The notes under the pieces are model-generated. The model was not told the origin of the DNA. It saw only the letters and a list, made by a program, of their open reading frames with translations, and ran no database searches. A stretch of 58,431 nt of DNA, taken from positions 1 to 58,431 of the IMG/VR virus record IMGVR_UViG_3300035665_000039; one strand, written 5' to 3'. A program made the translations under genes and the position numbers. Positions 2,962-15,356 of the stretch are shown piece after piece (position 1 is the first letter of the stretch; every line of letters begins with the position of its first letter). Source of the DNA: a virus.

Positions 2962-2992
2962 GGTCGTCTCCATGTGGGTTGATGATGTCGTT

Positions 2993-3022
2993 AGTATAAC
3001 CAATGTGATACTTAGTTGTCAC
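2993..3022 (-). promoter_or_regulatory. Sigma70-like promoter GTGACA-N18-TATACT with TATCACATTG in the spacer
   Basis: -35 at 3022-3017, -10 at 2998-2993. The imperfect palindrome TATCAC-attg-GTTATA overlaps the -10. Overlaps the stop of the 3012-3365 gene. Confidence 0.5.
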
Positions 3023-3365: not shown

Positions 3366-3441
3366 TTTTCCCCTGAACTCACTAAGGAAGCGGAAGATAG
3401 GGAAACACTCGGCATTCCGCAAACTGGTACGGTGAAGCTTC

Positions 3442-3457
3442 CATCACAGGCGTGATT
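3442..3457. promoter_or_regulatory. Operator-like palindrome CATCAC-AGGC-GTGATT
   Basis: The ATCAC-N4-GTGAT inverted repeat was read directly. It lies 5 nt upstream of the plus-strand ATG at 3462. Confidence 0.45.
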
Positions 3458-3461
3458 TCGC

Positions 3462-3680
3462 ATGGCTACTACAAAGAACGCGCCCTTGCGCAGAAAGCTC
3501 AAGGCGCCTGCTGGTCGGCGAAAGACGCTGCCCGCAACCGTCCTCCTCGGATGGACGTTCCACGACAGACCGGTGTCCTCGCTACCCATGCGAACGCCCG
3601 AGGCTGTCCAGTCCAGGATCAGGATCTGGCGACGAAAGGGATACCGCGTCGCGACGATCGTGGAGTGGGACTTCATGTAG
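3462..3680 (+). CDS. Small basic protein on the opposite strand (72 aa, MATTKNAPLRRKLKAPAGRRK...)
   Basis: By hand count its third positions are mostly G/C. The overlapping tail of the minus-strand 3582-3815 ORF has low GC3. No clear SD. Confidence 0.45.
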   Translation: MATTKNAPLRRKLKAPAGRRKTLPATVLLGWTFHDRPVSSLPMRTPEAVQSRIRIWRRKGYRVATIVEWDFM

Positions 3681-3815
3681 CCGGCGCTCGATCTCCTCGG
3701 CGAACCGGATCAGGAACGCCGTTGAGTTGGGCATCGACCAGTGCGTGTAGCCGTTGCACGAGAAGTCCATTGCGCCCGAGGCTCGAGCGGCGCTGATGAT
3801 GTCCTCTCGCTTCAT
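3582..3815 (-). CDS. hypothetical protein (77 aa, MKREDIISAARASGAMDFSCNGYTHW...)
   Basis: Internal ATG 3815, ATGA overlap with the upstream gene. The C-terminal about 30 codons look non-coding by GC3. Confidence 0.5.
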   Translation of the reverse strand: MKREDIISAARASGAMDFSCNGYTHWSMPNSTAFLIRFAEEIERRLHEVPLHDRRDAVSLSSPDPDPGLDSLGRSHG

Positions 3816-4000
3816 CGCTTGTGCTCCCTGATGTGGCGGTCGGTCATGGAACGCTCGTACTCGAGCGCGGTCGGTAGTGCCCATCGGCCGCACTTGTGGC
3901 ACTGCCAGTTGATGCAGCCGGTCGGGTCGCGACGGATCGCGCCGCCCCCGTGCGTCCAGTCGCACCATGCGTCTACGAGTTTCTGGAGTAGCCACCTCAT
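3812..4000 (-). CDS. hypothetical Cys-rich protein (62 aa)
   Basis: ORF with overlapping stop/start on both sides. Contains a CxxC...CxxC-type cysteine pattern (CINWQCHKC). Confidence 0.55.
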   Translation of the reverse strand: MRWLLQKLVDAWCDWTHGGGAIRRDPTGCINWQCHKCGRWALPTALEYERSMTDRHIREHKR

Positions 4001-4254
4001 GCCATGTCTCCCGCGGTGAGCTTCCAGTCATCGATCGGCGGCATCTCCGCGGCCGGCCGCTTGGGCAGCAGCAGCTCCTTGATGTGCGCCGGCACCCTCG
4101 GCAGCGGCGCCCAGGCCACGGCCCAGTCTCCCCACGTTCCGATGACGCATACGCCACCGCCATTGAGCAGCAGCATCTTGACGCCCAGCGGTGGCGTGTC
4201 TTCGTGTGGCGTGCGCCACTGCGTGTGTCCTGCGAAATAGTCCTTCATGCTCAT
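3997..4254 (-). CDS. hypothetical protein (85 aa, MSMKDYFAGHTQWRTPHED...)
   Basis: Internal ATG 4254 with an ATGA overlap with the 4251-4523 gene. Confidence 0.55.
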   Translation of the reverse strand: MSMKDYFAGHTQWRTPHEDTPPLGVKMLLLNGGGVCVIGTWGDWAVAWAPLPRVPAHIKELLLPKRPAAEMPPIDDWKLTAGDMA

Positions 4255-4523
4255 AGTCCAAATGGGTTGTGAAAGTCGTACTGTCCTGTCTCCTCGGTCT
4301 TCGGCTTCACGGCGCTGTAGTACAACCTCCATGCGCCTTTCTTGAACCCTGGGCGCTTGTTGTAGAGCCTCTCAGGGTGAACCAGGTTGGCTTTGGCAAG
4401 CCTCCTCATGGACATCCGAATGCCGTCGGTGGACATGTTGAACTTGGCCGCAAGGTCGTAGACAGAGGCGGGGTTACGGCGCTGCTTGAGGTGCTGAAGA
4501 ATCGCTTCTTGTCTTGGGTTCAT
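4251..4523 (-). CDS. Winged-helix DNA-binding protein, paralogue 2 (90 aa)
   Basis: The segment SVYDLAAKFNMSTDGIRMSMRRLAKANLV is similar to the neighbouring 4520-4846 product. ATGA overlap. Confidence 0.6.
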   Translation of the reverse strand: MNPRQEAILQHLKQRRNPASVYDLAAKFNMSTDGIRMSMRRLAKANLVHPERLYNKRPGFKKGAWRLYYSAVKPKTEETGQYDFHNPFGL

Positions 4524-4846
4524 TTCGATGTAGTTTCCTTTGCCTGGTAGTACCAGGCCCACGCGCCTCGCTTGCCGTTTGCCCACTTGAAGCGCAACTC
4601 CCTGGTGATCAGCCCGTGCGCGTCGAGAGCCTTCAGGTGCTTGCGTGCGCCCTCGGTCGTGCAGCCGAAGTGCGCAGACAGATCGCGCAGTGAGCGGGGC
4701 TCGGTCAGGTGCCCGAGGTAGGCGCGCTCGGTCGGTGTCAGTGGCTTCGTCTTGCGGCGCACCTGCCTTACGATCGCCTCGATCTGGTCTAGGTGACGAC
4801 CAAGGCCGACGTTGTTGGCCATGCGCAGGATCTCGGTGCGAGTCAT
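4520..4846 (-). CDS. Winged-helix DNA-binding protein, paralogue 3 (108 aa)
   Basis: Contains SLRDLSAHFGCTTEGARKHLKALDAHGLI. Internal ATG 4846 with an ATGA overlap with the 4843-5160 gene. Confidence 0.6.
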   Translation of the reverse strand: MTRTEILRMANNVGLGRHLDQIEAIVRQVRRKTKPLTPTERAYLGHLTEPRSLRDLSAHFGCTTEGARKHLKALDAHGLITRELRFKWANGKRGAWAWYYQAKETTSK

Positions 4847-5160
4847 TGCTCCACCCCCTGCTTCACCAGGTGGCGCAGCTCGACGGTCCTCGCGCACGAG
4901 CGCAGCGTCGACACGGTCGATCGCTTCATGAGCTCGATTGAGATCGCTACGAAGGTCTCGATCTCGGCGCGCTCTTCATCGCCCCAGCCGATCAGGTCGG
5001 CCACGCACGCTTTGAGCCGCGGATCCTTGAGCCTGGCCACCGCATCGGCGACGTACTCGAGATCCTCGCGCGGCAGCGCTGAGCGCTGACGCAGCAGCTC
5101 GTACATCCGGTCGGCTTGAGCAGCAACGAAGTCGGTGCCAGGCTTTGCTCGGGTCGTCAT
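4843..5160 (-). CDS. hypothetical protein (105 aa)
   Basis: ORF with 4-nt overlaps on both sides. Confidence 0.6.
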   Translation of the reverse strand: MTTRAKPGTDFVAAQADRMYELLRQRSALPREDLEYVADAVARLKDPRLKACVADLIGWGDEERAEIETFVAISIELMKRSTVSTLRSCARTVELRHLVKQGVEQ

Positions 5161-5363
5161 GGCTTGTCGCCCCCCTCGTTCTTGTCCAGCCCGAACTCGC
5201 GCGCCAGCGCTTCAGCACGCTCGCGAAGTTTTGCGGTGAGCTCAACAAGCTCGACCGCGTGCTCGTGCAGCACCTCGAGCTGGACGCGTAGCCGCTCGTG
5301 CGGTGGGGTGCGCTCGACCATGTCGTTGACCAGCACCCGCCTGGCCATCTCGAAGAAGTTCAT
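5157..5363 (-). CDS. hypothetical protein (68 aa, MNFFEMARRVLVNDMVERTPP...)
   Basis: Internal ATG 5363 with an ATGA overlap with rusA. Confidence 0.55.
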   Translation of the reverse strand: MNFFEMARRVLVNDMVERTPPHERLRVQLEVLHEHAVELVELTAKLRERAEALAREFGLDKNEGGDKP

Positions 5364-5779
5364 GCCAGCACCCCCACTTCGAGCATCACGCGGCCTCCAG
5401 GCACCGGCTCGGTCCATTCGAACCGTTCGCGCCGGATGACCTTGCACGAGTCGTCTACCCACAAGCCCGCCAGAGTCAGCGCATCGGCGCATTCCTTGCG
5501 CACGTTGTCGACGTCCCTCGCACGCCTGTCCGGTGGCGCCAGCAGCCAGGAGACCTCCAGAGGCCCTGTAAGCGGCAAACCGGTCAGCATTGACTGGTAG
5601 ACCTCATTGCGGACCATCGAGCGGTACAGCCCCGCTTCTCGCGTCTTGTAGTGCCCGCCGGTCGTCGTGTGCTTGGTCGCGTGATTGCCGGTCGGAGGCC
5701 AAGGCAGCTCCAACGACAGCGTCCGAACCATCCCGGAACCCAGTCCCGTTATTTCTTCTTGTTGATAATGAATTCTCAT
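5360..5779 (-). CDS. rusA: RusA-family Holliday-junction resolvase (start 5779 or 5731)
   Basis: The sequence LELPWPPTGNHATKH...YRSMVRNEV...DVDNVRKECADALTLAGLWVDDS matches the RusA pattern. Confidence 0.75.
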   Translation of the reverse strand: MRIHYQQEEITGLGSGMVRTLSLELPWPPTGNHATKHTTTGGHYKTREAGLYRSMVRNEVYQSMLTGLPLTGPLEVSWLLAPPDRRARDVDNVRKECADALTLAGLWVDDSCKVIRRERFEWTEPVPGGRVMLEVGVLA

Positions 5780-5796
5780 TAGCAATTAGTCCTTTC

Positions 5797-5824
5797 TGTA
5801 TAAGCATTGTGATATTTCAGCCAA
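5797..5824 (-). promoter_or_regulatory. Sigma70-like promoter TTGGCT-N16-TATACA with TATCACAATG in the spacer
   Basis: -35 at 5824-5819, motif at 5814-5805, -10 at 5802-5797. Upstream of rusA. Confidence 0.5.
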
Positions 5825-5851
5825 TCTTTCGAGGCCCTGTTTTTGACGACT

Positions 5852-6072
5852 TCACCCCTCCCTCAGCACTCACCCTCACCCTATATAGGGGTGAGGGTGA
5901 TGAGGGTGAACTGCCCCTCAGGCATTTGTCAGTTTCACCCTCATGTGCATAAGTAGGATAAGTCATTGATTTAATTCCAATTTCACCATAACACTCGTGA
6001 ATCACCCTCAGCTCACCCTCAGGCAAGTGAGGGTGCCTAAAAAATAGTCACCCTCAGGGGGGGTGAGGGTGA
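5852..6072. repeat. Iteron cluster: 9 copies of (T)CACCCTCA / TGAGGGTG(A) around an AT-rich core; putative replication origin
   Basis: Exact 8-mers. Forward copies start at 5871, 5936, 6003, 6014 and 6049. Reverse copies start at 5892, 5901, 6028 and 6064. Three inverted pairs: 5871-5899 around TATA, 6014-6035 and 6049-6071. AT-rich stretch at 5944-6000. Adjacent to the primase-helicase gene. Confidence 0.7.
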
Positions 6073-6128
6073 AAAACCTAGAACGATCCTGCCTATTTTT
6101 TAAGCAAAACTCGACCACCAACACCGCT

Positions 6129-8201
6129 CTACTTCTCATCACTGTCGTCCTCCCCATAGGCCTCCCGCTGCTTCTTATCGTGGTTTGAAAGCAACACATC
6201 GCCCTGCAGCTCGAAGAACTCGGTCGCCTTCTCGGTGTACTTCCAGCCCGCTCTGGAGCCCGCCGAAGGCTCAAGCAAACCCTCCTGCAGCATCCGCTTG
6301 CGGATGCGTTCGATCGTGACCTCAGACACGCCCAGCGACTGAGCCAGGGGCGCCAGACCGGGCCAGTTGGTGTAGGTCAGCTTCATGACTTCGTACGCGG
6401 TCACGACCTTGCCTGCCTTGGTCTTGGCCACTTCGAACTCGAGCGGGTTGCCGTCCTGAGCGATGTAGGCGCCGCGAATCATCACGCCCTCGTCATCAAA
6501 TCGATCCAGGTCGATCTGCTTGATCTTGAAACGCTGAGGCGGTGGGAGCTCTGCGTCCTTCATCTTGGTCGTGGTGAACTCGATCATCCCGTTGGCGCCC
6601 TTGACCCAGAACTCCTGGTCCATGGCAGCCTTGAAGACCGAGCTCCCACGAGCCCGGTCCATGTCGTGGCCCGAGTGGTGAACGACCATCACATTGCAGC
6701 CGTACGGGCGCCGGATGAAGGTGTCCAGGTGCTCGATGAACCGATTCGCATCGGCTTGCTTGTTCTCATCGCCCTGGCCGAAGTTTCGGGCCAGCGTATC
6801 GAGGATGACCGACATCGGGATGTACCCGGTGTTGGCGATCATCCGCTCGATCTCGAGCCTGACCATCTCAGCCGAGTCGCCGTCCAGCATGCTGACAGCG
6901 CGCTTGCTCTTGAAGAGCGGAGCGCCAGCAAGCGACACGTTGTGATGCTTGGACCAGGCCGCAAATCGCCTGGCCAGACCGTTGTGGCCCTCGCCTGCGA
7001 TGTAGAACACCGCCCCTTGCCTGACTTCCCGGTTCATCCACCGGGTGCCCGTTGCGATGCTGGCAGCCAGGTCGGTGACCACAAACGACTTGCCCGCCCC
7101 TGATGGCCCGAAGACCATCGAGAGCGCGTCCATCTCGAGGTAGTCGCGAACGATCCACTTCACCGAGCTCAGCGTCTCGATGATCTTGTCCATGGGTTCG
7201 AACAGTGGCTCGTGCTGCTTGATCTCGCCCGTGAGCGGATCGACCGATGCGTTCGCAAGCCTGGGTGTGGGCTCGTACTTGAACTTCTCTTGCGCAGTCG
7301 ATACCGACCGCGGGATGTCCTCGTACCGTGCCTTCCAGCGATCGTCCCTGACAGCGCTCGACGCATCCATCAATGCGCGCAGGATGTTGACCACTGCGCC
7401 CGGCGCGGTGCCCGAGGCCACGAGACTGGCCGCTGCGATGTTGATCGAGTCGTGAAGCGCTTCGCCTCGCAGGATGTTGCCCGTGAGCACCTTCAAGCGC
7501 TCGTCTTGCTCACCCTGATGGATCGTGGCCCGCTCGACCGTCGCCGGCTTGCTGTGGCGTATCTCGTCCAGGTCGATGCCGAAGATCGCAGCCGCATCCG
7601 ACAGCGTGTACCTGGCCTGCGGGCGCCAGTACTCCATGCGGTGCGTCCAGTGCCCGCTAGGCCTGGGCTTTTGGTTCTGCCCCACCGGCAGCCTGACGTA
7701 CCGAACCGCGTTGTTGCCCGACAGGTCCGCCTGGATGTGGCCACGTTCGGCCATGACTGTCACAAGGCGTGACACGATCTCGATATTGGCGCAGTCTGGA
7801 TCCGCTCCGTCTAAGAAGATCCCAACCTGGCGCTTGCCGGGCGATGTCTCGAGCGACCAACTAGCAGCTCCTAGAAGCTCGTCGCTTGAAACATCGTCTG
7901 CCACTAGAGCGAGCAATCGTGCAAAATGGGATTTACGCCTGTGAAGTGACCCGTCCTTGCCCCTAGTAACCGAGCCCACGGAGAAGTAGGTGTTCTGCCT
8001 CGTCCAGCCGTCCACATCGGCCCGCATGAGCGCTGCGTTGTATGCCCGCCCTCCCCAGTTGGCGTCGGATCCGTTCGGGTTGCCGATGAATGCGTTCACC
8101 CAAACCGTTGACCCTCGAGGTGCAGCCCGTAACAGTTCCGTGAGGAACTCGCTGTTGGATGGGCTATTACCATTGTTATATTCGTTGGAACTAATCATCA
8201 T
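6129..8201 (-). CDS. Primase-helicase (N-terminal primase-like region plus RepA/AAA_25-type P-loop helicase domain), 690 aa
   Basis: Walker A in VFGPSGAGKSFVVTDLAASIATG and Walker B-like MVVHHSGH. The long N-terminal domain ending ...RRKSHFARLLALVADDV is typical of phage/plasmid primases. Confidence 0.7.
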   Translation of the reverse strand: MMISSNEYNNGNSPSNSEFLTELLRAAPRGSTVWVNAFIGNPNGSDANWGGRAYNAALMRADVDGWTRQNTYFSVGSVTRGKDGSLHRRKSHFARLLALVADDVSSDELLGAASWSLETSPGKRQVGIFLDGADPDCANIEIVSRLVTVMAERGHIQADLSGNNAVRYVRLPVGQNQKPRPSGHWTHRMEYWRPQARYTLSDAAAIFGIDLDEIRHSKPATVERATIHQGEQDERLKVLTGNILRGEALHDSINIAAASLVASGTAPGAVVNILRALMDASSAVRDDRWKARYEDIPRSVSTAQEKFKYEPTPRLANASVDPLTGEIKQHEPLFEPMDKIIETLSSVKWIVRDYLEMDALSMVFGPSGAGKSFVVTDLAASIATGTRWMNREVRQGAVFYIAGEGHNGLARRFAAWSKHHNVSLAGAPLFKSKRAVSMLDGDSAEMVRLEIERMIANTGYIPMSVILDTLARNFGQGDENKQADANRFIEHLDTFIRRPYGCNVMVVHHSGHDMDRARGSSVFKAAMDQEFWVKGANGMIEFTTTKMKDAELPPPQRFKIKQIDLDRFDDEGVMIRGAYIAQDGNPLEFEVAKTKAGKVVTAYEVMKLTYTNWPGLAPLAQSLGVSEVTIERIRKRMLQEGLLEPSAGSRAGWKYTEKATEFFELQGDVLLSNHDKKQREAYGEDDSDEK

Positions 8202-8373
8202 CCGCTTCCGCCTTTCCCTCGATACCCGAAGGGGGCGTCACGCGGTGATGCGGCTTTCGTTGCTCCGATCATTGCGAACCTTTCAATGACACGAACCATA
8301 GGGAAGACCTGGGCAGGCGGTGGTTCTAGCCGCTTTTTGCGCCGTCGCGCTAGCCCGGTCTGAATGCTCTCGC

Positions 8374-8402
8374 TTGAGGTGACTTCACGAGCGTGATACT
8401 TT
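8374..8402 (+). promoter_or_regulatory. Candidate plus-strand promoter TTGAGG-N17-TACTTT with operator-like CTTCAC-GAGC-GTGATA, pointing antisense through the cro-like gene toward the XRE gene
   Basis: Hexamers and spacing were read directly. Same architecture as the 9057 and 12463 promoters. Overlaps the stop of 8385-8585. Confidence 0.35.
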
Positions 8403-8585
8403 GCGCGGCAGGATTCCGTCCTTCGCGCGCAGCTTTCCGCCCGTGATGTGTTCAATACGCAACTGTTGCAATTTTGGAATCGAACCCCTCGACCGCCAGT
8501 TACTGATCGTCGGCTGGGTGACCCCGATCGCATGCGCAACCGCAACTTGAGTTCCGAAGTGCTTGATAACGCTGTCGATGTCCAT
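8385..8585 (-). CDS. Cro/YdaS-like HTH protein (66 aa, MDIDSVIKHFGTQVAVAHAIGVTQPTISNWRSRGSIP...)
   Basis: The HTH pattern is typical of Cro/YdaS-type regulators. Divergent from the XRE gene. Confidence 0.7.
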   Translation of the reverse strand: MDIDSVIKHFGTQVAVAHAIGVTQPTISNWRSRGSIPKLQQLRIEHITGGKLRAKDGILPRKVSRS

Positions 8586-8615: not shown

Positions 8616-8644
8616 AGTATAGACAATGTGATAGCCAACTGCAA
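8616..8644 (-). promoter_or_regulatory. Leftward early promoter TTGCAG-N17-TATACT with TATCAC-attg-TCTATA in the spacer
   Basis: -35 at 8644-8639, -10 at 8621-8616. About 30 nt upstream of the cro-like ATG (8585). Confidence 0.55.
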
Positions 8645-8674: not shown

Positions 8675-9022
8675 ATGACCAAGAACTTTGAAAAGCTCTC
8701 CATCGGCGGTAGGCTCCGATACCTCATGGAGGTCCGGGGGTACACCCAAGTGGCGCTTGCTCACAAAGTTGGCATCACCCAGGCGGCGATCAGCAACATC
8801 GTCACCGACAGCTCGAGGAAGCCCTCGGCCCCTACCCTACTGAAGCTGGCTGCAGCACTGCAGGCCAACCCTCAGTGGATCCTCGATGGTAAGGGTGACC
8901 CCTTCCAGATCAACACCATCGGCGCTCGAGCCGAGCAGGATCTCATCGAAGCATTCCGATCGCTCGATGACCAGGCCAAGGCCGCGATCCTCGCCGCCAT
9001 CAAGGCAATGACCAATCGTTGA
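8675..9022 (+). CDS. XRE-family HTH regulator, candidate prophage repressor (115 aa, no peptidase domain)
   Basis: LRYLMEVRGYTQVALAHKVGITQAAISNIVTDSSRKPSAPTLLKLAAAL is a classical HTH_3 pattern. Divergent from the cro-like gene. Confidence 0.75.
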   Translation: MTKNFEKLSIGGRLRYLMEVRGYTQVALAHKVGITQAAISNIVTDSSRKPSAPTLLKLAAALQANPQWILDGKGDPFQINTIGARAEQDLIEAFRSLDDQAKAAILAAIKAMTNR

Positions 9023-9056
9023 ATCTCAGGGGCTAAGTACCCCTGCGACCTCCTGT

Positions 9057-9085
9057 TTGCACGAATATCACAAGCGTGATACTAT
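9057..9085 (+). promoter_or_regulatory. Rightward early promoter TTGCAC-N17-TACTAT with perfect operator TATCAC-AAGC-GTGATA (9066-9081)
   Basis: Hexamers, 17-nt spacer, TG at the extended -10 position and a perfect 6+4+6 palindrome were read directly. Confidence 0.6.
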
Positions 9086-9145
9086 TCGTTCGTGGTCGCT
9101 TTTGACCCGACGGCCTGGCGAACCAGGACACGACAGGAGTTCGAT

Positions 9146-9307
9146 ATGTTTAATTACCTCTGTTTCTACCGCGGCAAAAAGATTTCCGTGCAGGCTCTTC
9201 GCAGCTACGACGCCCAGGTCAAGGCAGCTCAAATTTTCAAAGCCAAGAAGGCCTACGAAGTGACCGTCGTTCTGGCCGACAAACCTGTCGACCCCGCAAG
9301 CCTGTAA
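9146..9307 (+). CDS. hypothetical protein (53 aa)
   Basis: ATG 9146 after AGGAG with a 6-nt spacer. First ORF after the 9057 promoter. Confidence 0.55.
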   Translation: MFNYLCFYRGKKISVQALRSYDAQVKAAQIFKAKKAYEVTVVLADKPVDPASL

Positions 9308-9311
9308 GGAG

Positions 9312-9321
9312 TATCACAATG
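9312..9321 (+). repeat. TATCACAATG motif copy (ATG is the start of 9319-9681; preceded by GGAG)
   Basis: Exact 10-mer read directly. Confidence 0.95.
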
Positions 9322-9681
9322 CTTGATTCCAACAAAGTGATTCAACTGATTGCCATCAAAGGCACCCTGTACTTCCCCTACGGCGGAGACATGCTTTTCG
9401 GCGACAGCCCCAAGTGGGATTGCCCCGACGTGCCCAGCATGCTCATGAAGGTCTACGCCGCGGGCGACTGCGACACCATCCCCTGGCCCCTGGTACCTGG
9501 CCCCTACTCCAGCACCACTGTCGAAGGCCTTGAGCAGCGCCTTGCTTGCGCCCTGTACGACGAGCGCGAGACGAATGCCTTCTTCCCCGACGACGCAAAG
9601 ATCGCCCTGCCCGACGGCACCGTCTTTGACTTTGACGCCGTCATAGCAAACGCATCAGCCTCGCAAGGAGCTCAGGCATGA
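9319..9681 (+). CDS. hypothetical protein (120 aa)
   Basis: ORF starting at the motif ATG with GGAG upstream. Confidence 0.65.
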   Translation: MLDSNKVIQLIAIKGTLYFPYGGDMLFGDSPKWDCPDVPSMLMKVYAAGDCDTIPWPLVPGPYSSTTVEGLEQRLACALYDERETNAFFPDDAKIALPDGTVFDFDAVIANASASQGAQA

Positions 9682-9863
9682 AAAAGCAACGCCTCACCAA
9701 AGAGCAACGCGCAGCGGTCGATCGCTATGAGTTTTGCCTGCGCCAGGAAGACCGCTACCTCGGCAGCGTGTTCGCCAACGCGCACGGTCAGCGACTGGTC
9801 GAAGCCAAGACTCGCGAAGCTTACGAGGCAGCCAAGCGCCTCGGCGTCAACCACCTTTGCTAG
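9678..9863 (+). CDS. hypothetical protein (61 aa)
   Basis: ATGA overlap with the upstream gene. Confidence 0.55.
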   Translation: MKKQRLTKEQRAAVDRYEFCLRQEDRYLGSVFANAHGQRLVEAKTREAYEAAKRLGVNHLC

Positions 9864-9867
9864 GAAA

Positions 9868-9877
9868 TATCACAATG
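9868..9877 (+). repeat. TATCACAATG motif copy (ATG is the start of 9875-10084)
   Basis: Exact 10-mer, preceded by AGGAAA. Confidence 0.95.
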
Positions 9878-10084
9878 CTTGTACAAGTCTTTTACGCCTT
9901 CATCCCTCTCGACTACCAGCGCCCTGGCGGCGTCTGGTGGTACCGCACTCTCACCCATGGAGAGGCAAACGAGTTCATCGAGACGATCAAGAGCTGTGCA
10001 ACCGCGATCCGGTTGTCGACTCGTTTCGTTGTGCAGGACCCCGACAACATCAAACCCCCGGCGGACGCCGCCATCATCAAGTAA
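9875..10084 (+). CDS. hypothetical protein (69 aa, MLVQVFYAFIPLDYQRPGG...)
   Basis: Internal ATG of the 9734-10084 ORF, supplied by the motif. Confidence 0.55.
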   Translation: MLVQVFYAFIPLDYQRPGGVWWYRTLTHGEANEFIETIKSCATAIRLSTRFVVQDPDNIKPPADAAIIK

Positions 10085-10097
10085 ATAGGAGAACGAT

Positions 10098-10364
10098 ATG
10101 AAGTTTGAATCAAAGAACGAACCAGCAGAACGCATCAAGCAGCCAGTCTTCGTGCTGCATGGCATCGCCTACTTGCCCAGCTACGACAAGCCCCATCGTT
10201 GGATCGGGCCCGGCCCCCGGCAGACGCGCTCGACCTACACAACGCTCGAGCTCCTCGAGGCCCAGGCCGAGCTCAAGTCTCACCCTCTCTGGCCGCGGTT
10301 CTGGATTGACGAACAAGCGATCGCGATCATCAACGGGCAGGCCGTCGCCGAAGGGGTCAACTGA
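10098..10364 (+). CDS. hypothetical protein (88 aa)
   Basis: ORF with AGGAGAA upstream. Confidence 0.6.
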   Translation: MKFESKNEPAERIKQPVFVLHGIAYLPSYDKPHRWIGPGPRQTRSTYTTLELLEAQAELKSHPLWPRFWIDEQAIAIINGQAVAEGVN

Positions 10365-10624
10365 TGGCCTTCATTGTTCGCGATAACGAGATCGTTCCAA
10401 TCCCTATCCAGCCTGGTAAGCGCGTGAAGATCGGAAGCTCGTACGAGCCGCCCGCGGTCAACTACGTCGAGTACGACCAGCTATGGGTGCAAGACATCAT
10501 GGCCTTCGGGAAGACGCCCTGGTCGTGGATTCGCTGGAAGGTCCCTGAGTGGATCTTCTGGTTCGTCTGCTGGTCTTCGTTTGCCTACGCGCTAGGCGTT
10601 GTAGCGAAGAGGTACTGGCAATGA
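10364..10624 (+). CDS. hypothetical protein with C-terminal hydrophobic segment (86 aa)
   Basis: TGATG overlap with the upstream gene. The segment WIFWFVCWSSFAYALGVV looks like a transmembrane helix. Confidence 0.55.
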   Translation: MAFIVRDNEIVPIPIQPGKRVKIGSSYEPPAVNYVEYDQLWVQDIMAFGKTPWSWIRWKVPEWIFWFVCWSSFAYALGVVAKRYWQ

Positions 10625-10911
10625 GCATCGATGCGATGAAGAAAGCCTGCAGCGTGATGGCCAATGCGCGCGATTACATTGGCGCCAGCGAACCGGAGCC
10701 GTGGCCCATGGAGCAGCAGTACGACGAGCTCCAGGACGCGATCAACATGCTAGCAAGAGCCATCAAAGAGGCAGAAGAGCGTGAATGGGTTGGGCTGACG
10801 GATGAGGAAGCGGACGAGTATTGGGATGAAAGCGTAAGCACGGGGTGTCGATTGTCTTTTGGCATGGGCGTCGATTATGCAAACAAAGCTCTAAAGGAGA
10901 AGAATACATGA
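10621..10911 (+). CDS. hypothetical acidic protein (96 aa)
   Basis: Internal ATG 10621 with an ATGA overlap. Confidence 0.55.
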   Translation: MSIDAMKKACSVMANARDYIGASEPEPWPMEQQYDELQDAINMLARAIKEAEEREWVGLTDEEADEYWDESVSTGCRLSFGMGVDYANKALKEKNT

Positions 10912-11099
10912 GTAACGCCGTTTTTCCCGACCCCCGAAAGCCTAGCAAGCTATTTCCACCTAACGGCCCGTTTGCGCCTCACCGTTGCGCTATCTGTCAA
11001 GGGAAATTTGAGGAGGGCCAGCAGTTTTACAACTATGGAGAAGGTCAGGTTGTTCACACGGCTTGCCGATTTCTTTTGCCAAAGGAGAAGAACACATGA
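10908..11099 (+). CDS. hypothetical Cys-containing protein (63 aa)
   Basis: ATGA overlap. Contains CAICQG...HTAC. Confidence 0.5.
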   Translation: MSNAVFPDPRKPSKLFPPNGPFAPHRCAICQGKFEEGQQFYNYGEGQVVHTACRFLLPKEKNT

Positions 11100-11130
11100 C
11101 ACGAGACGACATCAGAGCAAGGGGTGAGCA

Positions 11131-11406
11131 ATGAGTAAACACACACCGGGGCCGTGGTACATCGACCCGATTAAAGCGCACGCCAACGGTAACCGCCGGA
11201 TCATGGCTGAACAATGCACGCCGGTTGCGGTAGTGCCGGACCATTTAGTTGCGGACGCCCGCCTGATCGCCGCTGCGCCTGATCTGCTGGAGGCGTTGCA
11301 GCAGGTTGTCCACGAATGGGACACGAACCCAAACGTAATCACATACGCTGAATTGATGCGTGCATCCCGCGCCGCCATCGCTAAAGCGACTGGGGGTGAG
11401 GGATGA
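11131..11406 (+). CDS. hypothetical protein with HTPGPW N-terminus (91 aa)
   Basis: HTPGPW...ADARLIAAAPDLLEAL is a pattern I recognise from many phage hypothetical proteins. A 12-codon mini-ORF (11096-11134) precedes it with an ATGA overlap. Confidence 0.6.
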   Translation: MSKHTPGPWYIDPIKAHANGNRRIMAEQCTPVAVVPDHLVADARLIAAAPDLLEALQQVVHEWDTNPNVITYAELMRASRAAIAKATGGEG

Positions 11407-11416
11407 CCGGAGCCTC

Positions 11417-12370
11417 TCAAACCGGCGCCCCTCGAAAGTACGCCGTGCCGTCGATTGTCTCGACTAGCTCAGGCATCAAGAGTTTGCCATTGTGATACGT
11501 CAAGACAGCAAACCCGGAGCACCACGGCACCGGGTTGTCTTCAATGTAGCGAAACGCCTTGCTATCAGGATCGGCCAGCATGCCTGTAGATACACCGTAT
11601 CGACGGCCGCGGTAGTCGCCCCAAGGTTTGACTTCAAGCAAATGCGTGTGGCCGGTGATGGCGTTCAGGCCTGACTTGAGCGTGTTGTTGTAGCCGCTGT
11701 GAATCCCGGAGTGCTGCATGCGGTGCTTGATCATGGTGTTTTCGTTGACGGCTAGCGACCAGCTAACAGTCCACTCGGGTATGTGATCAGCGAGCCTGGT
11801 GCCGGAAATGTCTCGGTACTCAGGCACCTGCCCTGCCAGGCGCTTGTCAAATCGAATGTCATGGTTGCCAACGGTCCGATGCAAGATCGTTCCCAGTCCT
11901 TTGCAGGCCTTGACGATTTGATCCATGTGCCATTGCACGGCCTCGAGCTCTTCCTTCAGTGTGGCCTTCGGGCTCCAGTCCTCCGGCCCGTATCGACTGA
12001 TCGTGCCCCCATCGAGGATGTCGCCGTTCGCGACCACAAGCTGCGGTTTGAGTCGCTTGATCAGCTTGAGCATTGCCTTGAACGCAGGGCTCGACTCTTG
12101 CGGCATGAAGTGGGCATCCGAGAAGACAATTACAACCCCTTCAATCTCGGCAACGCTGCGGATCCTGTCTTCCTTGTGAAGAATCGTGCGTCGCCCCAAC
12201 CTTTGGTCATTGTGTGCCGGAAGCTCAATGTTTAATCGAGCCTCAATGGAATTCCGGCGATGTAAGACCGCTCGTTCGGCCATCTCAAGTTCTTTAGCAA
12301 CCAACTTAGCACTGCCAAGCCTGTTCCATAAGTCAATGAAATCCTGTTCAGGAACCTTCGGCTTAGCCAT
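11417..12370 (-). CDS. Calcineurin-like metallophosphoesterase with N-terminal HTH-like region (317 aa)
   Basis: Motifs VIVFSDAHF, GDILDG, GNHD and GHTHL. Lone minus-strand gene inside a plus-strand block. GGAG with a 6-nt spacer before ATG 12370. Confidence 0.7.
   Translation of the reverse strand: MAKPKVPEQDFIDLWNRLGSAKLVAKELEMAERAVLHRRNSIEARLNIELPAHNDQRLGRRTILHKEDRIRSVAEIEGVVIVFSDAHFMPQESSPAFKAMLKLIKRLKPQLVVANGDILDGGTISRYGPEDWSPKATLKEELEAVQWHMDQIVKACKGLGTILHRTVGNHDIRFDKRLAGQVPEYRDISGTRLADHIPEWTVSWSLAVNENTMIKHRMQHSGIHSGYNNTLKSGLNAITGHTHLLEVKPWGDYRGRRYGVSTGMLADPDSKAFRYIEDNPVPWCSGFAVLTYHNGKLLMPELVETIDGTAYFRGAPV
11488..11497 (-). repeat. TATCACAATG motif copy inside the phosphoesterase CDS (encodes YHNG)
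   Basis: Exact 10-mer on the minus strand. Confidence 0.95.
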
Positions 12371-12401
12371 CTACTGCTCCAAAATCTAAAAAGCTGTGCG
12401 G

Positions 12402-12415
12402 CTTATATCACAATT
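12402..12415 (-). promoter_or_regulatory. Candidate extended -10 (TGATATAAG) for the phosphoesterase gene, overlapping the plus-strand variant TATCACAATT
   Basis: Read directly. No good -35. Confidence 0.3.
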
Positions 12416-12462
12416 CGCTTATATATGGAATGAAGCACGTTCGCACCACGGCGATCGGCCGT

Positions 12463-12492
12463 TTGACATCGATATCACGCTTGTGATACTCT
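12463..12492 (+). promoter_or_regulatory. Promoter TTGACA-N18-TACTCT with perfect operator TATCAC-GCTT-GTGATA (12473-12488)
   Basis: Consensus -35 and a perfect palindrome in the spacer. About 65 nt upstream of ATG 12557. Confidence 0.6.
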
Positions 12493-12556
12493 TTGTCTGT
12501 CGGTTGATTGATCGACACCGACCCGGCGGTTCCGGGCGCTCCCAAGGGGACACAAC

Positions 12557-12742
12557 ATGGCACTTCAGATCGAAATCAAAACTGTCTACGGCGAGGTCAA
12601 GTACTACCCCGTCAACGACGCAGCCAAGACTTTTGCCGCGATCGCCGGCACCAAGACCCTCAGCATCGACAACCTCAAGCGCATCAAGTCGCTCGGCATC
12701 GCCATCGAGTACGTCGAGGCCCTCGCCTTCGCCCGCGTCTGA
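12557..12742 (+). CDS. hypothetical protein (61 aa)
   Basis: First ORF after the 12463 promoter. Confidence 0.55.
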   Translation: MALQIEIKTVYGEVKYYPVNDAAKTFAAIAGTKTLSIDNLKRIKSLGIAIEYVEALAFARV

Positions 12743-12751
12743 TCAAGGAGA

Positions 12752-12761
12752 TATCACAATG
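12752..12761 (+). repeat. TATCACAATG motif copy (ATG is the start of 12759-13076; preceded by GGAG)
   Basis: Exact 10-mer. Confidence 0.95.
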
Positions 12762-13076
12762 CCTACGTTCAACATGGCAGTTCGCGACGGCAGCATGATC
12801 GAGACCAAGTACTCGCCGATCGTCGTCATCGCCGGCACCGAGACCCACAAACTCGCCCTGCACCAGCTTCCCTCCGGTCACTGGGTCGTCAGCGATCCCA
12901 AGTCCGGCGCCAAGATCGTCAGCGTGCATGGCCAGTACAAGGGCATCCGCACCAGCAGCCGCGGCCTGACCAAGCGCGAGCTCCGCGTCTACGCCCTCGC
13001 CTCCGTCGAGGCCCTGATCGAGCAGATCGGCAGCGACAAGTTCAACGCCGTTCTGGCCAACCCGAAACCCTTCTGA
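12759..13076 (+). CDS. hypothetical protein (105 aa, MPTFNMAVRDGSMIETKY...)
   Basis: Internal ATG of the 12396-13076 ORF, supplied by the motif. Confidence 0.6.
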   Translation: MPTFNMAVRDGSMIETKYSPIVVIAGTETHKLALHQLPSGHWVVSDPKSGAKIVSVHGQYKGIRTSSRGLTKRELRVYALASVEALIEQIGSDKFNAVLANPKPF

Positions 13077-13080
13077 GGAG

Positions 13081-13090
13081 TATCACAATG
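13081..13090 (+). repeat. TATCACAATG motif copy (ATG is the start of 13088-13399; preceded by GAGGAG)
   Basis: Exact 10-mer. 22 nt (AGGAGTATCACAATGCTTGATT) are identical to the 9306-9327 copy. Confidence 0.95.
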
Positions 13091-13399
13091 CTTGATTTAG
13101 ACGACATCAACATCATCGAGGGCACCGAGCCCGTCGAAGACGAGCTCACCTACTACCTCGCGATCCAGCGCGCCATCAACGACGGCAGCGCCTGGAAGTT
13201 TCAGGGCAGCTACGGTCGCGCCATGATGGCCGCGATCGAGTCCGGCGCCTGCATGCTCGGACCCCGCCCCGCTCGCGATTACTGGGGTAACAAGATCCCC
13301 GCTCGCGACGAAGTCAAGGAAGGCACCAAGGGCAGCTACGAGTACGTCGCCGACCAGTACGGCGCCGACTGGGCCTTCGACATGTTCAAAGTTAACTAG
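13088..13399 (+). CDS. hypothetical protein (103 aa)
   Basis: ORF starting at the motif ATG. Confidence 0.65.
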   Translation: MLDLDDINIIEGTEPVEDELTYYLAIQRAINDGSAWKFQGSYGRAMMAAIESGACMLGPRPARDYWGNKIPARDEVKEGTKGSYEYVADQYGADWAFDMFKVN

Positions 13400-13410
13400 G
13401 AGATACCGCT

Positions 13411-13842
13411 ATGTCCGCATTCCTCGTTCCCGACTACCACATCAACGCCCTCGTAAGCTGGGCCGCCGAGCGCCACGGCATCAACGCGGTCAGCTACTAC
13501 TGGGGCGGACGCCGTCGCGAAGTCCGCGGCCACGAGAAGCGCATCGCCTCGGTCCTGTACGCCGAGAACGTTCGCAGCGTCAACGCCCGGTACCGCGAGG
13601 CCGACGCAGCCCATGGCTTCAAGTTCAAGCGTGTGCCCAACCGACTGAACCCGATCGACGTCGTGAAGGCCTGCCACGGCTACGGCTACCAGGCTTGCGA
13701 GGCGGACGGCTGGGAGCAGTCCGAAGCCTTCGCGATCATCGCCGCCATCACGCAGTCAGCGATCCGCGCCGTGCCCGGCTACAGCGAGTCAAATGCCTGG
13801 GTTCTCAGCGATCCCAACTTCAATCAAAAGGAAGCAGCATGA
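13411..13842 (+). CDS. hypothetical protein (143 aa)
   Basis: ORF with AGGAGA upstream. Confidence 0.65.
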   Translation: MSAFLVPDYHINALVSWAAERHGINAVSYYWGGRRREVRGHEKRIASVLYAENVRSVNARYREADAAHGFKFKRVPNRLNPIDVVKACHGYGYQACEADGWEQSEAFAIIAAITQSAIRAVPGYSESNAWVLSDPNFNQKEAA

Positions 13843-13925
13843 GACGCTCAAACGATATCGTTCTGATCCTTGGCGGCGGCCTGTTCGGCGTCGCATTCGC
13901 AGTCACCCTGTTCTTTTTTCTGTAG
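13839..13925 (+). CDS. possible small membrane peptide (28 aa, MRRSNDIVLILGGGLFGVAFAVTLFFFL)
   Basis: ATGA overlap with the upstream gene. Hydrophobic. Very short. Confidence 0.35.
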   Translation: MRRSNDIVLILGGGLFGVAFAVTLFFFL

Positions 13926-13928
13926 GAG

Positions 13929-13938
13929 TATCACAATG
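13929..13938 (+). repeat. TATCACAATG motif copy (ATG is the start of 13936-14148; preceded by AGGAG)
   Basis: Exact 10-mer. Confidence 0.95.
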
Positions 13939-14148
13939 CTTACCGCCAAAGACATCGCCCAAGCCATCGCCGTCCTCAGCCGCGTCGAGAACCTCACCAT
14001 GGATCTCGCCAGGGACCCCGCCTACGTCGGGAACCTTTGCGCCGAGGCTTTTATTGCCGCCCTCCCCCTCAAGCGATCGCTCGAGAAGCTCCGGGTTCCG
14101 ATGGTCCAGCCCGAGACCACCGTCGTTCACGCTTGCATCGAAGAATAA
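13936..14148 (+). CDS. hypothetical protein (70 aa)
   Basis: Internal ATG supplied by the motif. Confidence 0.55.
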   Translation: MLTAKDIAQAIAVLSRVENLTMDLARDPAYVGNLCAEAFIAALPLKRSLEKLRVPMVQPETTVVHACIEE

Positions 14149-14161
14149 CAAGCGTTATACT
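14133..14161 (+). promoter_or_regulatory. Promoter TTGCAT-N17-TATACT with imperfect palindrome AATAAC-AAGC-GTTATA in the spacer
   Basis: Hexamers and spacing were read directly. Overlaps the stop of 13936-14148. Upstream of the recombination module. Confidence 0.55.
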
Positions 14162-14206
14162 CAAATCTGAGACGCACGTTTACAACCACTCCGAAAGGAC
14201 GCAATC

Positions 14207-14590
14207 ATGGAAGCACTTTCTCTCTCCCAACTGATCGCCACCCGCATCGCCGCCAAGCGCGCCGAAGACGAAGCGATCGCCGAGCGCCGCCGCATCGACG
14301 GCGTCATCGCCGAGATCCTCAAGGATCCCAACAAGCCCGAGGGCTCGATCTCCCAGAAAGCCGACGGCTACAAGGTCACCGTGACCTACAAGATCGATCG
14401 CAAGGTCGACACCGAGAAGCTCACCAACGACTGGGCCAAGCTCCCGCTCGACGTGCAGAACATCTTCAAGTGGTCCGCCTCCCTCTCGGTCTCCGAGTTC
14501 CGCAAGCTCGAGGACAAGGCGCAGATCTCCGCGGCTCGTTTCTTCGAAGCGAAGGAAGCCTCCCCCTCGATCAAGATCGAAGCCGTTTAA
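14207..14590 (+). CDS. hypothetical protein (127 aa)
   Basis: ORF with GAAAGGA upstream. Confidence 0.65.
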   Translation: MEALSLSQLIATRIAAKRAEDEAIAERRRIDGVIAEILKDPNKPEGSISQKADGYKVTVTYKIDRKVDTEKLTNDWAKLPLDVQNIFKWSASLSVSEFRKLEDKAQISAARFFEAKEASPSIKIEAV

Positions 14591-14602
14591 CTCGCCGGGC
14601 AG

Positions 14603-14612
14603 TATCACAATG
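14603..14612 (+). repeat. TATCACAATG motif copy (opens the 4-codon mini-ORF MPIF, 33 nt upstream of 14645)
   Basis: Exact 10-mer. Confidence 0.95.
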
Positions 14613-14644
14613 CCCATTTTCTGACGCCTACTGGAGACGACCAC

Positions 14645-15337
14645 ATGGCAATCAAACTCACTTCGACCAAGGACAGCGCCGCGATCAGCGGCCTCAAGTT
14701 CCTGGTTCACGGGCCGGCCGGTGCCGGCAAGACCTCGCTGTGCGCAACCACGGACGAGCCCACCATCATCATCAGCGCGGAGTCGGGCCTGCTCTCGCTG
14801 CGCGGTCACGACATCCCGGTCATCGAGGTCAAGGATCTGGGCTCGCTCTACGAGGCCTATGACTTCGTGGCCAACTCGGCCGACGGCCAGGGCTACAAGT
14901 GGATCTGTCTCGACTCGATCAGCGAGATCGCCGAGGTCGTGCTGAACCACGAGAAGAAGGTCGCCAAGGACCCGCGCCAAGCCTACGGTGCGCTCGCCGA
15001 GAAGATGACGGATTTGATCCGCGCCTTCCGCGACCTGCCCGGCCGCAACGTCTACTTCTCATGCAAGCAGGAGCGCGCCAAGGACGAGCAGACCGGCGCG
15101 ATGCTGTACTACCCCGCCATGCCCGGCAACATGCTCAAGCAAGGCGTCGGGTACTTCTTCGATTTCGTGTTCGCGCTGCGCGTGGAACGGGATGCCGACG
15201 GCAACCCCACGCGCTGGCTGCAGACGCAACGAGACTTCAACTACGAGGCCAAGGACCGTTCCGGCAGCCTCGACATGTTCGAAGCGCCCGACCTCGCCGG
15301 CATCGCCTCCAAGGTCATTTCCACAACCGCCAAGTAA
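14645..15337 (+). CDS. Sak4-like RecA-fold ATPase (AAA_24 type), 230 aa
   Basis: Walker A in LVHGPAGAGKTSL. The size and the following DUF669-like gene are typical of Sak4 modules. Confidence 0.7.
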   Translation: MAIKLTSTKDSAAISGLKFLVHGPAGAGKTSLCATTDEPTIIISAESGLLSLRGHDIPVIEVKDLGSLYEAYDFVANSADGQGYKWICLDSISEIAEVVLNHEKKVAKDPRQAYGALAEKMTDLIRAFRDLPGRNVYFSCKQERAKDEQTGAMLYYPAMPGNMLKQGVGYFFDFVFALRVERDADGNPTRWLQTQRDFNYEAKDRSGSLDMFEAPDLAGIASKVISTTAK

Positions 15338-15356
15338 TCCAGAAAGGACACCCATC

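Follow-up and report, generated by a model that had tools for sequence, protein, structure and literature searches.

Introduction

Experimental knowledge of repressor sites that are dispersed and oriented with transcription comes mainly from Cluster A mycobacteriophages and P1. The stoperators of Cluster A, which are bound by the repressor (gp71 of L5, the TipsytheTRex repressor), are asymmetric 13-mers with more than 20 copies, located in promoters and short intergenic spaces and oriented with transcription (PMC9283540, PMC6550527). The C1 repressor of P1 has about 22 operators of asymmetric consensus, dispersed over the genome and controlling many separate promoters (PMC8546580). The start-associated sequence (SAS) of Cluster K phages is a short asymmetric repeat, found nearly always in one orientation at the starts of different gene families and associated with the ATG; its function is not known (PMC3203893). 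In the T1-like phages T1 and Stevie, which have Gram-negative hosts, 16–20 asymmetric 22-bp repeats are mostly intergenic and follow the direction of transcription (PMC4319613). In the present work, a dispersed 10-mer, TATCACAATG, was studied in IMG/VR virus record IMGVR_UViG_3300035665_000039, the whole analysed stretch of which (58,431 bp) is referred to as the window.

The window is a metagenome-assembled genome of a temperate tailed phage, complete or nearly so, with about 60% G+C; the same sequence is deposited as contig k141_513152 of ENA ERZ28008908. The genes are directed leftward at 1–8,585, rightward at 8,675–23,052 and leftward again at 23,049–58,431, with the inverted gene 11,417–12,370 as the sole exception. 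An integrase, a 3,884-aa virion protein, a portal, a terminase and a divergent helix-turn-helix (HTH) gene pair are encoded, as well as an early module of the composition AAA_24/DUF669/PD-(D/E)XK/DEAD-helicase. The phage family is abundant in freshwater metagenomes. Cultured close relatives were not found (no match by megablast; portal identity at most 33% by tblastn), and a scan of genome contigs gave no prophage of this family in isolate genomes.

On the basis of sequence comparisons, the copies of TATCACAATG are proposed, with a probability of roughly 0.5, to be dispersed hemi-operators for the CI-like/Cro-like regulators of the phage, overprinted on promoter spacers and translation starts.

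Results

Occurrence and orientation of the motif

Sixteen exact copies of TATCACAATG were located, at all the coordinates and on the strands listed in the preliminary description of the window; 100 dinucleotide-preserving shuffles averaged 0.04 copies and never exceeded 1. With up to one mismatch, 23 sites were counted (1.47 expected). The near variants listed earlier at 15892, 3001, 8624 and 12406 are present, and further ones lie at 8171, 48943 and 54255. The 10-mer is a subset of a larger TATCACA family, the core of which occurs 28 times in the window against 2.4 expected, with more than 20 copies spread genome-wide from 1.3 kb to 54.8 kb. Most of these cores (22 of 28) lie outside coding sequence or on gene junctions and at least 10 in promoter spacers. 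The contexts are promoter spacers, Shine–Dalgarno (SD)–ATG spacers of unrelated genes, and other junctions together with a few coding sequences.

All the exact copies are co-oriented with the local gene, as had been observed before, including the copy at 11488 in the sole minus-strand gene of the plus-strand block. The non-palindromic TATCACA cores were co-oriented with their own genes in 25 of 25 cases. Across about 160 related metagenomic loci, in which the strands were assigned by anchoring on cro and helicase or portal, the motif recurs throughout the family, and about 90% of the TCACAATG copies there point with transcription. The ratios of co-oriented to opposite copies were 109:5 in the rightward block, 16:2 to the left of cro and 103:14 in portal-anchored late loci, the opposite ones of the latter being mostly without the TA prefix.

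A strand bias of this kind could also be imparted by the direction of DNA ends or forks, if the motif were a replication- or packaging-polar word (Chi-like or an architecture-imparting sequence). A bidirectional origin near the primase gene would agree with the places where the strand changes, about 8.6 kb and within 21.5–36.9 kb. However, the 11488 copy follows the inverted gene and not the block, and it is kept in the related locus L145. Such a word would also leave the SD/ATG and −35/−10 phasing and the enrichment in the few percent of intergenic DNA unaccounted for, and it is regarded as barely credible.

A scan of viral contigs with the 14-mer GAGTATCACAATGC returned single chance matches only, and neither the motif nor its palindrome was found described in a phage context in a literature search. 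Binding of integration host factor (IHF; site WATCAANNNNTTR) was considered and rejected: TATCACAATGCTTG deviates from it in one base of the core and would fit only with the gap before TTR lengthened by one base, and IHF sites are degenerate, whereas the motif copies are exact and palindrome-forming.

Palindromic sites and the candidate regulators

A perfect 16-bp palindrome, TATCACAAGCGTGATA, occupies 9066–9081 in the spacer of the rightward early promoter (TTTGCA 9056–9061, GATACT 9078–9083). A second, identical palindrome is found at 12473–12488 in the spacer of TTGACA-N16-GATACT (12463–12490), a promoter predicted to restart rightward transcription past the inverted gene. In the relatives, the palindromes read TATCACAATTGTGATA or (A)CTTCACAATTGTGATA and are situated between TTGACA or a near-consensus −35 and the −10; palindromic promoter sites are likewise present in L124, L125, L128 and L129. 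The operator-like palindrome CTTCACGAGCGTGATA at 8383–8398 covers the last codons and the stop of cro (KVSRS*) and is kept in relatives, and TATCACAGGCGTGATA lies at 30390–30405 inside the 3,884-aa virion gene.

The pattern TATCAC-N4-GTGATA was matched with at most two mismatches at 11 sites, compared with 0.63 expected. Several of the "asymmetric" copies are among these 11 sites, which form a continuum from hemi-site to full site. The logo of 166 unique TCACAATG sites of the family, TATCACAATGCTGATA, is an imperfect palindrome with a near-invariant left half and a degenerate right half. As the palindromes contain the same word, TATCACAAT is taken to be one half-site of an operator, and the first 8–9 bases of TATCACAATG are thus the predicted half-site of palindromic operators. 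The repeat that had been described as one asymmetric unit is therefore real, but it is not free-standing: it makes up the strong half and the centre of a pseudo-palindrome of about 16 bp. From the three roles suggested for it previously, an oriented promoter or regulator-loading element comes nearest, as the motif matches the half-site of the palindromic operators in early promoters and does not vary in promoter spacers where the relatives also keep the −35 and −10.

Two other features were noted at or near palindromic sites. A short conserved string (TCGTCTGTGG, TGTCTGTCG or CTGCTGTCG) follows the −10 in the palindromic early promoters at a distance of about 5–12 nt (9084–9100 and 12491–12505 in the window; also in L124, L125, L128 and L129). 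A near-palindromic operator-like 16-mer, TATAACAATGGTAATA, at 8165–8180 (−) overlies codons 8–13 of the AAA_25 gene, which are rare codons.

The palindromic promoters border an immunity region of lambdoid style, and the two genes of its divergent HTH pair encode the candidate readers of the motif. The Cro-like HTH gene (8385–8585, −; 66 aa) is the first gene of the leftward lytic operon. Its product matches Pfam P22_Cro (4e-17), with P22 Cro (1rzs), Xfaso Cro (3bd1) and N15 Cro (2hin) as the closest sequences in the PDB. Divergent from cro is the gene of a CI-like XRE-family repressor (8675–9022, +; 115 aa), which matches Pfam HTH_3 (1e-11) and has the DNA-binding domains of 434 repressor and P22 c2 as the nearest PDB sequences. 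The recognition helices, TQAAISN in the CI-like and TQPTISN in the Cro-like protein, are mutually similar and near-invariant across the family, and the family-wide constancy of the half-site matches the constancy of both helices. A second DNA-binding domain was not detected in either protein by Pfam and PDB-sequence comparison. The scan of 59 further proteins gave neither a phage RNA polymerase nor a sigma factor, a Q/AlpA antiterminator or a RegA-like or S21-like protein.

The leftward cro promoter (TTTGCA 8645–8640, N18, TATACT 8621–8616) carries the variant TATCACATTG in its spacer at 8624–8633 (−), and in every relative examined the cro promoter has ATCACA 5–6 nt upstream of TATACT. Immediately downstream of cro and ahead of the AAA_25 primase/helicase gene, 8290–8360 (−) matches the int-alpA RNA motif of Rfam (RF02996) with 40.6 bits, which exceeds the gathering score. 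It is retained by relatives, often with a TATCACAATG site ahead of it. With two hairpins and an end resembling a terminator just past the first early gene, it is reminiscent of a put- or nut-like element.

Promoter-type copies

The promoter-type copies follow the pattern −35, N4-5, TATCACAWTG, N2-3, TAnnnT. The three copies previously placed between −35 and −10 elements (1301, 5805 and 54788) are positioned correctly, but three is too low a count, since the copy at 39217 and the variants at 3001, 8624, 12406 and 20242 belong to the same type. Comparison of the relatives indicates that these sites sit in real promoters.

The copy at 1301–1310 (−) is found upstream of the small-terminase module in a unit designated R1, in the order TTGACC 1321–1316, motif, ATG, TATTCT 1297–1292; a 5' hairpin and an intrinsic terminator at 1244–1228 follow. 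R1 is conserved in 10 relatives. Alignment of the 11 units showed no change in TATCACAAT, in the −35 TT or in the −10 bases T, A and terminal T. The other bases of TTGAC, like the last G of the motif, are conserved in at least 90%, and the spacer is otherwise variable. R2, with its copy at 54788–54797 (−), is situated directly after the portal gene and reads TTGCGT 54807–54802, motif, CTG, TATTAT 54784–54779, followed by a hairpin and by a terminator at 54717–54699 with compensatory changes among relatives. It is kept after the portal gene in relatives with a conservation pattern as in R1; some relatives have the R2 promoter form at this position and others TGAGGTATCACAATGGCAATACTG as the start of the next gene. 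In R3, upstream of gene 37345–39120, the copy at 39217–39226 (−) is followed by CG and TATTTT, then by CCGGACCAGTGCGCC and a terminator at 39160–39141.

The copy at 5805–5814 (−) lies in the order TTGGCT 5824–5819, GAAA, motif, CT, TATACA 5802–5797, between a strong terminator at 6072–6048 and the RusA start (5779), which follows 26 nt downstream; as a 16-mer it is two mismatches away from the palindrome pattern. The variant TATCACATTG at 3001–3010 (−), in the spacer of GTGACA-N18-TATACT, is one mismatch away as a 16-mer. In the rightward block, TATCACAGGGCTTATA at 20242–20257 (+) fills the spacer of TTGCCT-N16-TATAAT (20232–20259), the probable integrase promoter, and the variant TATCACAATT at 12406–12415 (+), followed by TATATA, is located in the divergent intergenic region ahead of the 12463 promoter. 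A reading of CACAAT within the motif as a −10 hexamer was rejected, as the −35 elements lie merely 8 nt upstream.

R1–R3 appear as paralogous units ahead of late genes, at 1218–1321 (−), 54691–54807 (−) and 39135–39226 (−), respectively. In each, the motif occupies the spacer of a sigma-70-type promoter, after which come a short 5' hairpin (CCGGGnnAGTGYG...) and a strong intrinsic terminator. Covariation among relatives was seen in the hairpin of R1 and in the terminator of R2. The units could be small RNAs, attenuators or antitermination units. Rfam has no family for the motif or R1–R3, with one weak sub-threshold sRNA-like match at R2, and pairing of a small RNA with the motif was rejected, since the R1–R3 transcripts contain no complement of it.

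The layout of R1–R3, in which the promoter with the motif is followed by a short conserved hairpin and, 50–90 nt downstream, by a strong terminator before late genes, is that of lambda PR'-qut-tR'. The motif could accordingly be imagined as a loading site for an elongation-modifying factor: an antiterminator would board polymerase at an element like the Q-binding element (QBE) and read through the R1–R3 terminators, and at the junction copies the factor would be loaded anew or retained, in the manner of RfaH at ops sites. The long leftward operon has four strong terminators to pass. However, neither Pfam nor PHROGs gave a Q, AlpA or NusG-like protein, and the genes upstream of R1 (1318–1620, 1613–2260) have no Pfam/PHROG match to Q or AlpA, no structure search having been made. 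The initially transcribed regions of R1 and R2 contain no conserved −10-like pause element. The same word is also present in the palindromic operators beside cI/cro, in the terminator-less promoters of cro, RusA and integrase and at junctions without a promoter, and a loading site is considered quite improbable.

Copies at other junctions and within coding sequences

The copies at 14603, 15892, 21515 and 41412 are situated 25–84 nt ahead of the next start. Mini-ORFs of 4–8 codons, opened by the copies at 1301, 14603, 21515 and 41412, read as in the preliminary description. The copy at 14603–14612 (+), at the DUF7173/AAA_24 junction, opens one of 4 codons, and the real start, 14645, is 35 nt downstream; in several relatives the site at this junction is directly on the AAA_24 start. 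The variant TATCACAATA at 15892–15901 (+) begins 2 nt past the DUF669 stop and is not at a gene start. L124 has TATCACAATG at the same post-DUF669 junction, where the site is never a start. The position of the site at the post-portal, pre-AAA_24 and post-DUF669 junctions is thus conserved independently of start-codon use.

The copy at 21515–21524 (+), beyond the probable attP, opens an 8-codon mini-ORF ending at the start of 21549–21833. It is within a direct repeat, TACTTCTAAnnTATCACAA (21336–21354 and 21504–21522), which flanks a tRNA-like fragment at 21397–21456 (−; Rfam tRNA, 29.6 bits) directly after the integrase gene. The fragment is probably the attP core. A third TATCACAA is present at 21448; it and the TACTTCTAAnnTATCACAA repeats may be sites of the arm type or sites for a regulator.

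The copy at 41412–41421 (−) opens a 4-codon mini-ORF and lies in the loop of a 9-bp hairpin, the 3' arm of which has the start codon of gene 41028–41396. The hairpin region, 41380–41456 (−), reads CATGAGTCA ... TGACTCATG (z = −2.2) and sequesters this start codon; with the motif and mini-ORF in its loop, it suggests translational coupling or leader-peptide control.

Both exact copies inside coding sequences are in frame and, as stated earlier, TAT CAC AAT GGN encodes YHNG (coordinate arithmetic, genes 16470–17525 and 11417–12370). The copy in the PD-(D/E)XK nuclease gene, 17337–17352 (+), is part of the near-palindromic 16-mer TATCACAATGGTGACG with two mismatches and is found about 190 nt upstream of the helicase start. 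Most relatives retain TATGTCAATGGTGAT there from rare T-ending codons (TATCACAATGGTGAC in the window), at an identity of the proteins of only 35–58%; TATGTCAATGGTGAT is at the orthologous position in L133, L141, L143, L152, L161, L167, L170, L174, L185, L186, L193, L209 and L211. This retention points to a conserved DNA or RNA element within the coding sequence. The copy at 11488–11497 (−), with TTGACG directly before it, belongs to the 3' part of the inverted metallophosphatase gene 11417–12370. A variant, TATCACATTG, at 48943–48952 (−) is inside gene 48586–50634 and is followed by GTG TACAAC. The operator-like palindrome of cro overlaps a conserved C-terminus, KVSR(S/A)-stop. Where it is inside coding sequence, the motif constrains codon choice.

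Copies at translation starts

Seven copies provide the ATG of a coding ORF behind GGAG or GAGG, at 9319, 9875, 12759, 13088, 13936, 36899 and 43345, in agreement with the earlier assignment. In the rightward block, these are 9312–9321 (+; TAA GGAG TATCACA ATG), the start of 9319–9681; 9868–9877 (+; GGAAA TATCACA ATG), the start of 9875–10084; 12752–12761 (+; GGAGA TATCACA ATG), the start of 12759–13076, retained at the orthologous start in L124, L125 and L145; 13081–13090 (+; TGA GGAG TATCACA ATG), the start of 13088–13399; and 13929–13938 (+; TAG GAG TATCACA ATG), the start of 13936–14148. In the leftward direction, 36897–36906 (−; GAGGAG TATCACA ATGA) is the start of 36252–36899 and overlaps the stop of the upstream gene, and 43343–43352 (−; TAA CGAGG TATCACA ATG) is the start of a 515-aa tail-fibre-like gene, 41798–43345. 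The 22-nt identity between two of these sites is exact (AGGAGTATCACAATGCTTGATT), although it spans 9307–9328 and 13076–13097, so that the first coordinate is one base off the 9306 given before.

In the relatives, GGAG-TATCACA-ATG was found ahead of at least 30 unique, mostly unrelated genes beyond the seven in the window, among them AAA_24, a ferritin-like gene, a DUF3310 gene and integrase. The SD-type genes are also biased further downstream. Compared with 1,059 control starts, codon 2 ends in T in 77% (controls 10%), position 14 is A in 60% (32%) and codon 3 is Ile in 27% (5%). No common RNA structure was detected around the SD-type sites.

These properties would suit a start-associated element acting on RNA, in which GGAG-UAUCACA-AUG-NNU-A is a translational operator or enhancer for a phage or host RNA-binding factor, like the T4 RegA operators or the Cluster K SAS, and the promoter copies on DNA are a separate use of the same word. 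Seven of the 16 copies in the window and the relatives' sites use the motif ATG at a fixed distance of 7 nt from GGAG, all the window copies are on the sense strand, the motif precedes unrelated genes, the conservation reaches codons 2–3 (T13) and the start region is not hidden in RNA structure (z-scores −0.8 to +1.7). On the other hand, the promoter-type copies upstream of the transcription start are equally invariant, the word is half of DNA palindromes, several conserved junction sites are not starts, and no RegA-like, S21 or other RNA-binding candidate was seen in the scanned proteins, remote homologues being possible. Natural variants at SD-type and promoter-type sites fall on the same positions, suggesting one reader. 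A translational operator, as proposed in the preliminary description, is conceivable for the seven start-codon copies; it does not suit the copies upstream of transcription starts, the palindromic versions or the junctions where relatives retain the site without using its ATG. An RNA-level element is considered unlikely.

The function of the motif is placed on DNA because the promoter-type copies, although they precede the transcription start to which they belong, vary no more than the −35, because the 5805 copy is past a strong terminator and the site is kept whether or not its ATG is used, and because rare T-ending codons persist in the coding-sequence sites, an operator covers the end of cro and no RNA structure is shared.

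Mosaic junctions between relatives

L145 (IMG/VR contig 3300042860_000909) resembles the window in the manner of a mosaic on a fine scale. Blocks at 9327–10808, 11393–15749 and 22133–28304 are 88–97% identical, the DNA between them is unrelated or only about 66% identical, and L145 has an extra 255-bp gene at about 9680. Its stretch 700–1500 was compared with 9307–9689 of the window. The L145 orthologue of the gene at the 9312 copy is 96.7% identical from 9327 rightward, begins GGAGCGCGACATGGAAGCT without the motif and has an unrelated gene upstream.

The 9312 copy is therefore exactly at a window/L145 mosaic junction, and the same 22 nt recur at 13076–13097. This would be expected of a recombination linker, another role suggested earlier, in which 10–22 nt at gene boundaries serve as short homologies for module exchange between relatives, and the phage does encode an AAA_24/DUF669/PD-(D/E)XK recombination module. 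However, in about 85 loci the ends of high-identity blocks were within 25 nt of 3 of 44 motif-bearing starts versus 279 of 1779 ordinary starts, i.e. mosaic junctions are not in excess at gene starts with the motif. The other window/L145 junctions (10808, 11393, 15749, 22133) are away from motifs, and a linker leaves the promoter-spacer positions and the palindromes unexplained. This role is accordingly very improbable.

Other features of the genome

The 3,884-aa ORF (23049–34703, −) takes up one fifth of the genome and has the operator-like palindromic site at 30390 inside it; its PHROGs matches are confined to the C-terminal ~900 residues and belong to families without known function. One small protein of the 59 scanned matches the anti-CBASS/Thoeris sponge domain Acb2_Tad1_hairpin of Pfam (8e-11). 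Other PHROGs names in this batch scan were ferredoxin, nucleotide pyrophosphohydrolase, acetyltransferase and starvation-inducible regulator; the matches of the batch scan are not assigned to genes. L211 (CAZKLA010000003.1) is a 53-kb contig of this phage family filed in an "uncultured Aquiluna sp." metagenome-assembled genome, which is probably a binning artefact and no host evidence.

Discussion

In the proposed model, the CI-like XRE protein (8675–9022), the Cro-like protein (8385–8585) or both would recognise, on double-stranded DNA, a pseudo-palindromic operator of about 16 bp, of which TATCACAATG represents the strong half-site (TATCACAA) together with the centre. Full palindromes are found in the spacers of the two strong rightward early promoters, and sites with one good half occupy the spacers of at least eight other sigma-70-type promoters, those of cro, RusA, integrase and the three late units among them. 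At promoter-less junctions, the half-site coincides exactly with the 7-nt SD-to-ATG spacer, its final A-A-T and a tolerated G forming the start codon. As the half-site ends in AAT, G at position 10 results in an ATG seven bases after the SD, and because the ATG is built from the half-site, the 16-bp site fits into intergenic gaps of 10–15 nt.

The bound regulator would be expected to occlude the early, integrase and late promoters. At the promoter-less junctions, it may act as a roadblock or provide extra occupancy by which prophage read-through into lytic genes is silenced, by analogy with known systems; alternatively, Cro might shut genes down late via these sites. A true elongation block as at stoperators is doubtful even within the hemi-operator model. 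It is also suggested, tentatively, that a dimeric CI/Cro-type switch has independently evolved stoperator-like genome-wide silencing from single strong half-sites in SD-ATG and late-promoter spacers, the same 10 nt being an operator on DNA and an initiation region on RNA and the bound regulator halting elongating polymerase at gene junctions.

The intergenic space is tiny, and for this reason the sites would be overprinted on translation starts. The co-orientation of the copies would largely be a consequence of overprinting: the downstream half shares bases with the −10 hexamer or the first codons, and so only the upstream half is free to be consensus. An orientation-dependent mechanism as in L5 is also possible for the polarity.

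Several points weigh against the hemi-operator model. The CI-like and/or Cro-like proteins are put forward as readers from the genomic context, and since both regulators and the half-site are conserved throughout the family, there is no covariation to read. Repressors of the 434/P22 type and Cro normally bind two half-sites as dimers, and isolated half-sites are bound poorly. In the right halves of the seven SD-type copies 1–3 of 6 positions match GTGATA, which together with dimeric binding could mean low occupancy at these sites. The perfect palindromes carry T or C at position 10, and several promoter-type copies keep G there, where no start codon is needed. The exact SD/ATG phasing and the downstream T13-A14 bias also fit a signal on RNA. 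Genomes of the L128 type can do without the junction sites, since L128 has palindromic promoter operators but none of its gene starts carries TATCACA. The roadblock step is drawn purely from analogy.

If this stoperator-like silencing is real, silencing by dispersed, oriented repressor sites extends from actinobacteriophages to a widespread freshwater phage family with an unrelated repressor fold. The appearance of the same layout from ordinary CI/Cro half-sites suggests that whole-genome silencing is recurrent and not a peculiarity of actinophages. The sites would also be a case of overlapping codes: one operator half-site serves as SD-start spacer and start codon as well, and unrelated proteins show a bias in their first codons. 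In practice, the motif flags promoters and gene starts in a family without a cultured member, and it points to three promoter-hairpin-terminator modules ahead of late genes as regulatory units.

Comparison with known systems

The resemblance to the lambda QBE and PR'-tR' lies in a DNA site between the −35 and −10 of late promoters, followed by a short terminated transcript in R1–R3. In contrast to lambda, no Q-like protein or sigma-dependent pause element was found, and the word is also present in early promoters and at promoter-less junctions. Operators of the T4 RegA type lie on the mRNA and include the AUG of the target. Seven of the present copies do so; those of the promoter type are located upstream of their own starts, and several at junctions are not starts. 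The T1-like phages are virulent and without a repressor, unlike the phage of the window, and their repeat is longer, unrelated and of a role that is not known.

The motif shares with the Cluster K SAS its single orientation and its position at the starts of different gene families. The SAS, however, contains the SD and is located 3–7 bp upstream of the start, whereas the motif lies between the SD and the start and includes the ATG. Only 7 of the 16 exact copies are at real starts, and the SAS is confined to non-structural genes, is not situated in promoter spacers and has no relation to palindromic operators.

With lambdoid OR/OL, the window has in common the divergent cI-like/cro-like pair, pseudo-palindromes of 14–18 bp over the −35/−10 and similar recognition helices. 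In lambdoid phages, about six operators are gathered in the immunity region, whereas here about 30 sites are distributed genome-wide, including late promoters, starts of structural genes, junctions and coding sequence, and most of them have one good half only.

Single and paired inverted sites coexist among the P1 C1 operators, and the window resembles P1 in this respect and in the dispersal of the sites at many separate promoters. The 17-mer of P1 has a sequence unrelated to the motif, C1 does not belong to the HTH proteins of CI/Cro type, and the P1 sites are not on SD-ATG junctions.

The L5 stoperators are matched in the more than 20 genome-wide copies, in the location at early promoters and in short intergenic spaces, in the single orientation and in the temperate phage with a repressor. 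They differ in that a repressor monomer with two DNA-binding domains binds a truly asymmetric site in L5, compared with a half-palindrome and small candidates of the 434/P22 type here. The proteins are unrelated, the start codon is supplied by the site in the window, and an elongation block here would be by analogy. Overall, the motif is predicted to work most like the L5-type stoperators, with the P1 C1 operators also close, but as a separate system and not as a member of the stoperator family.

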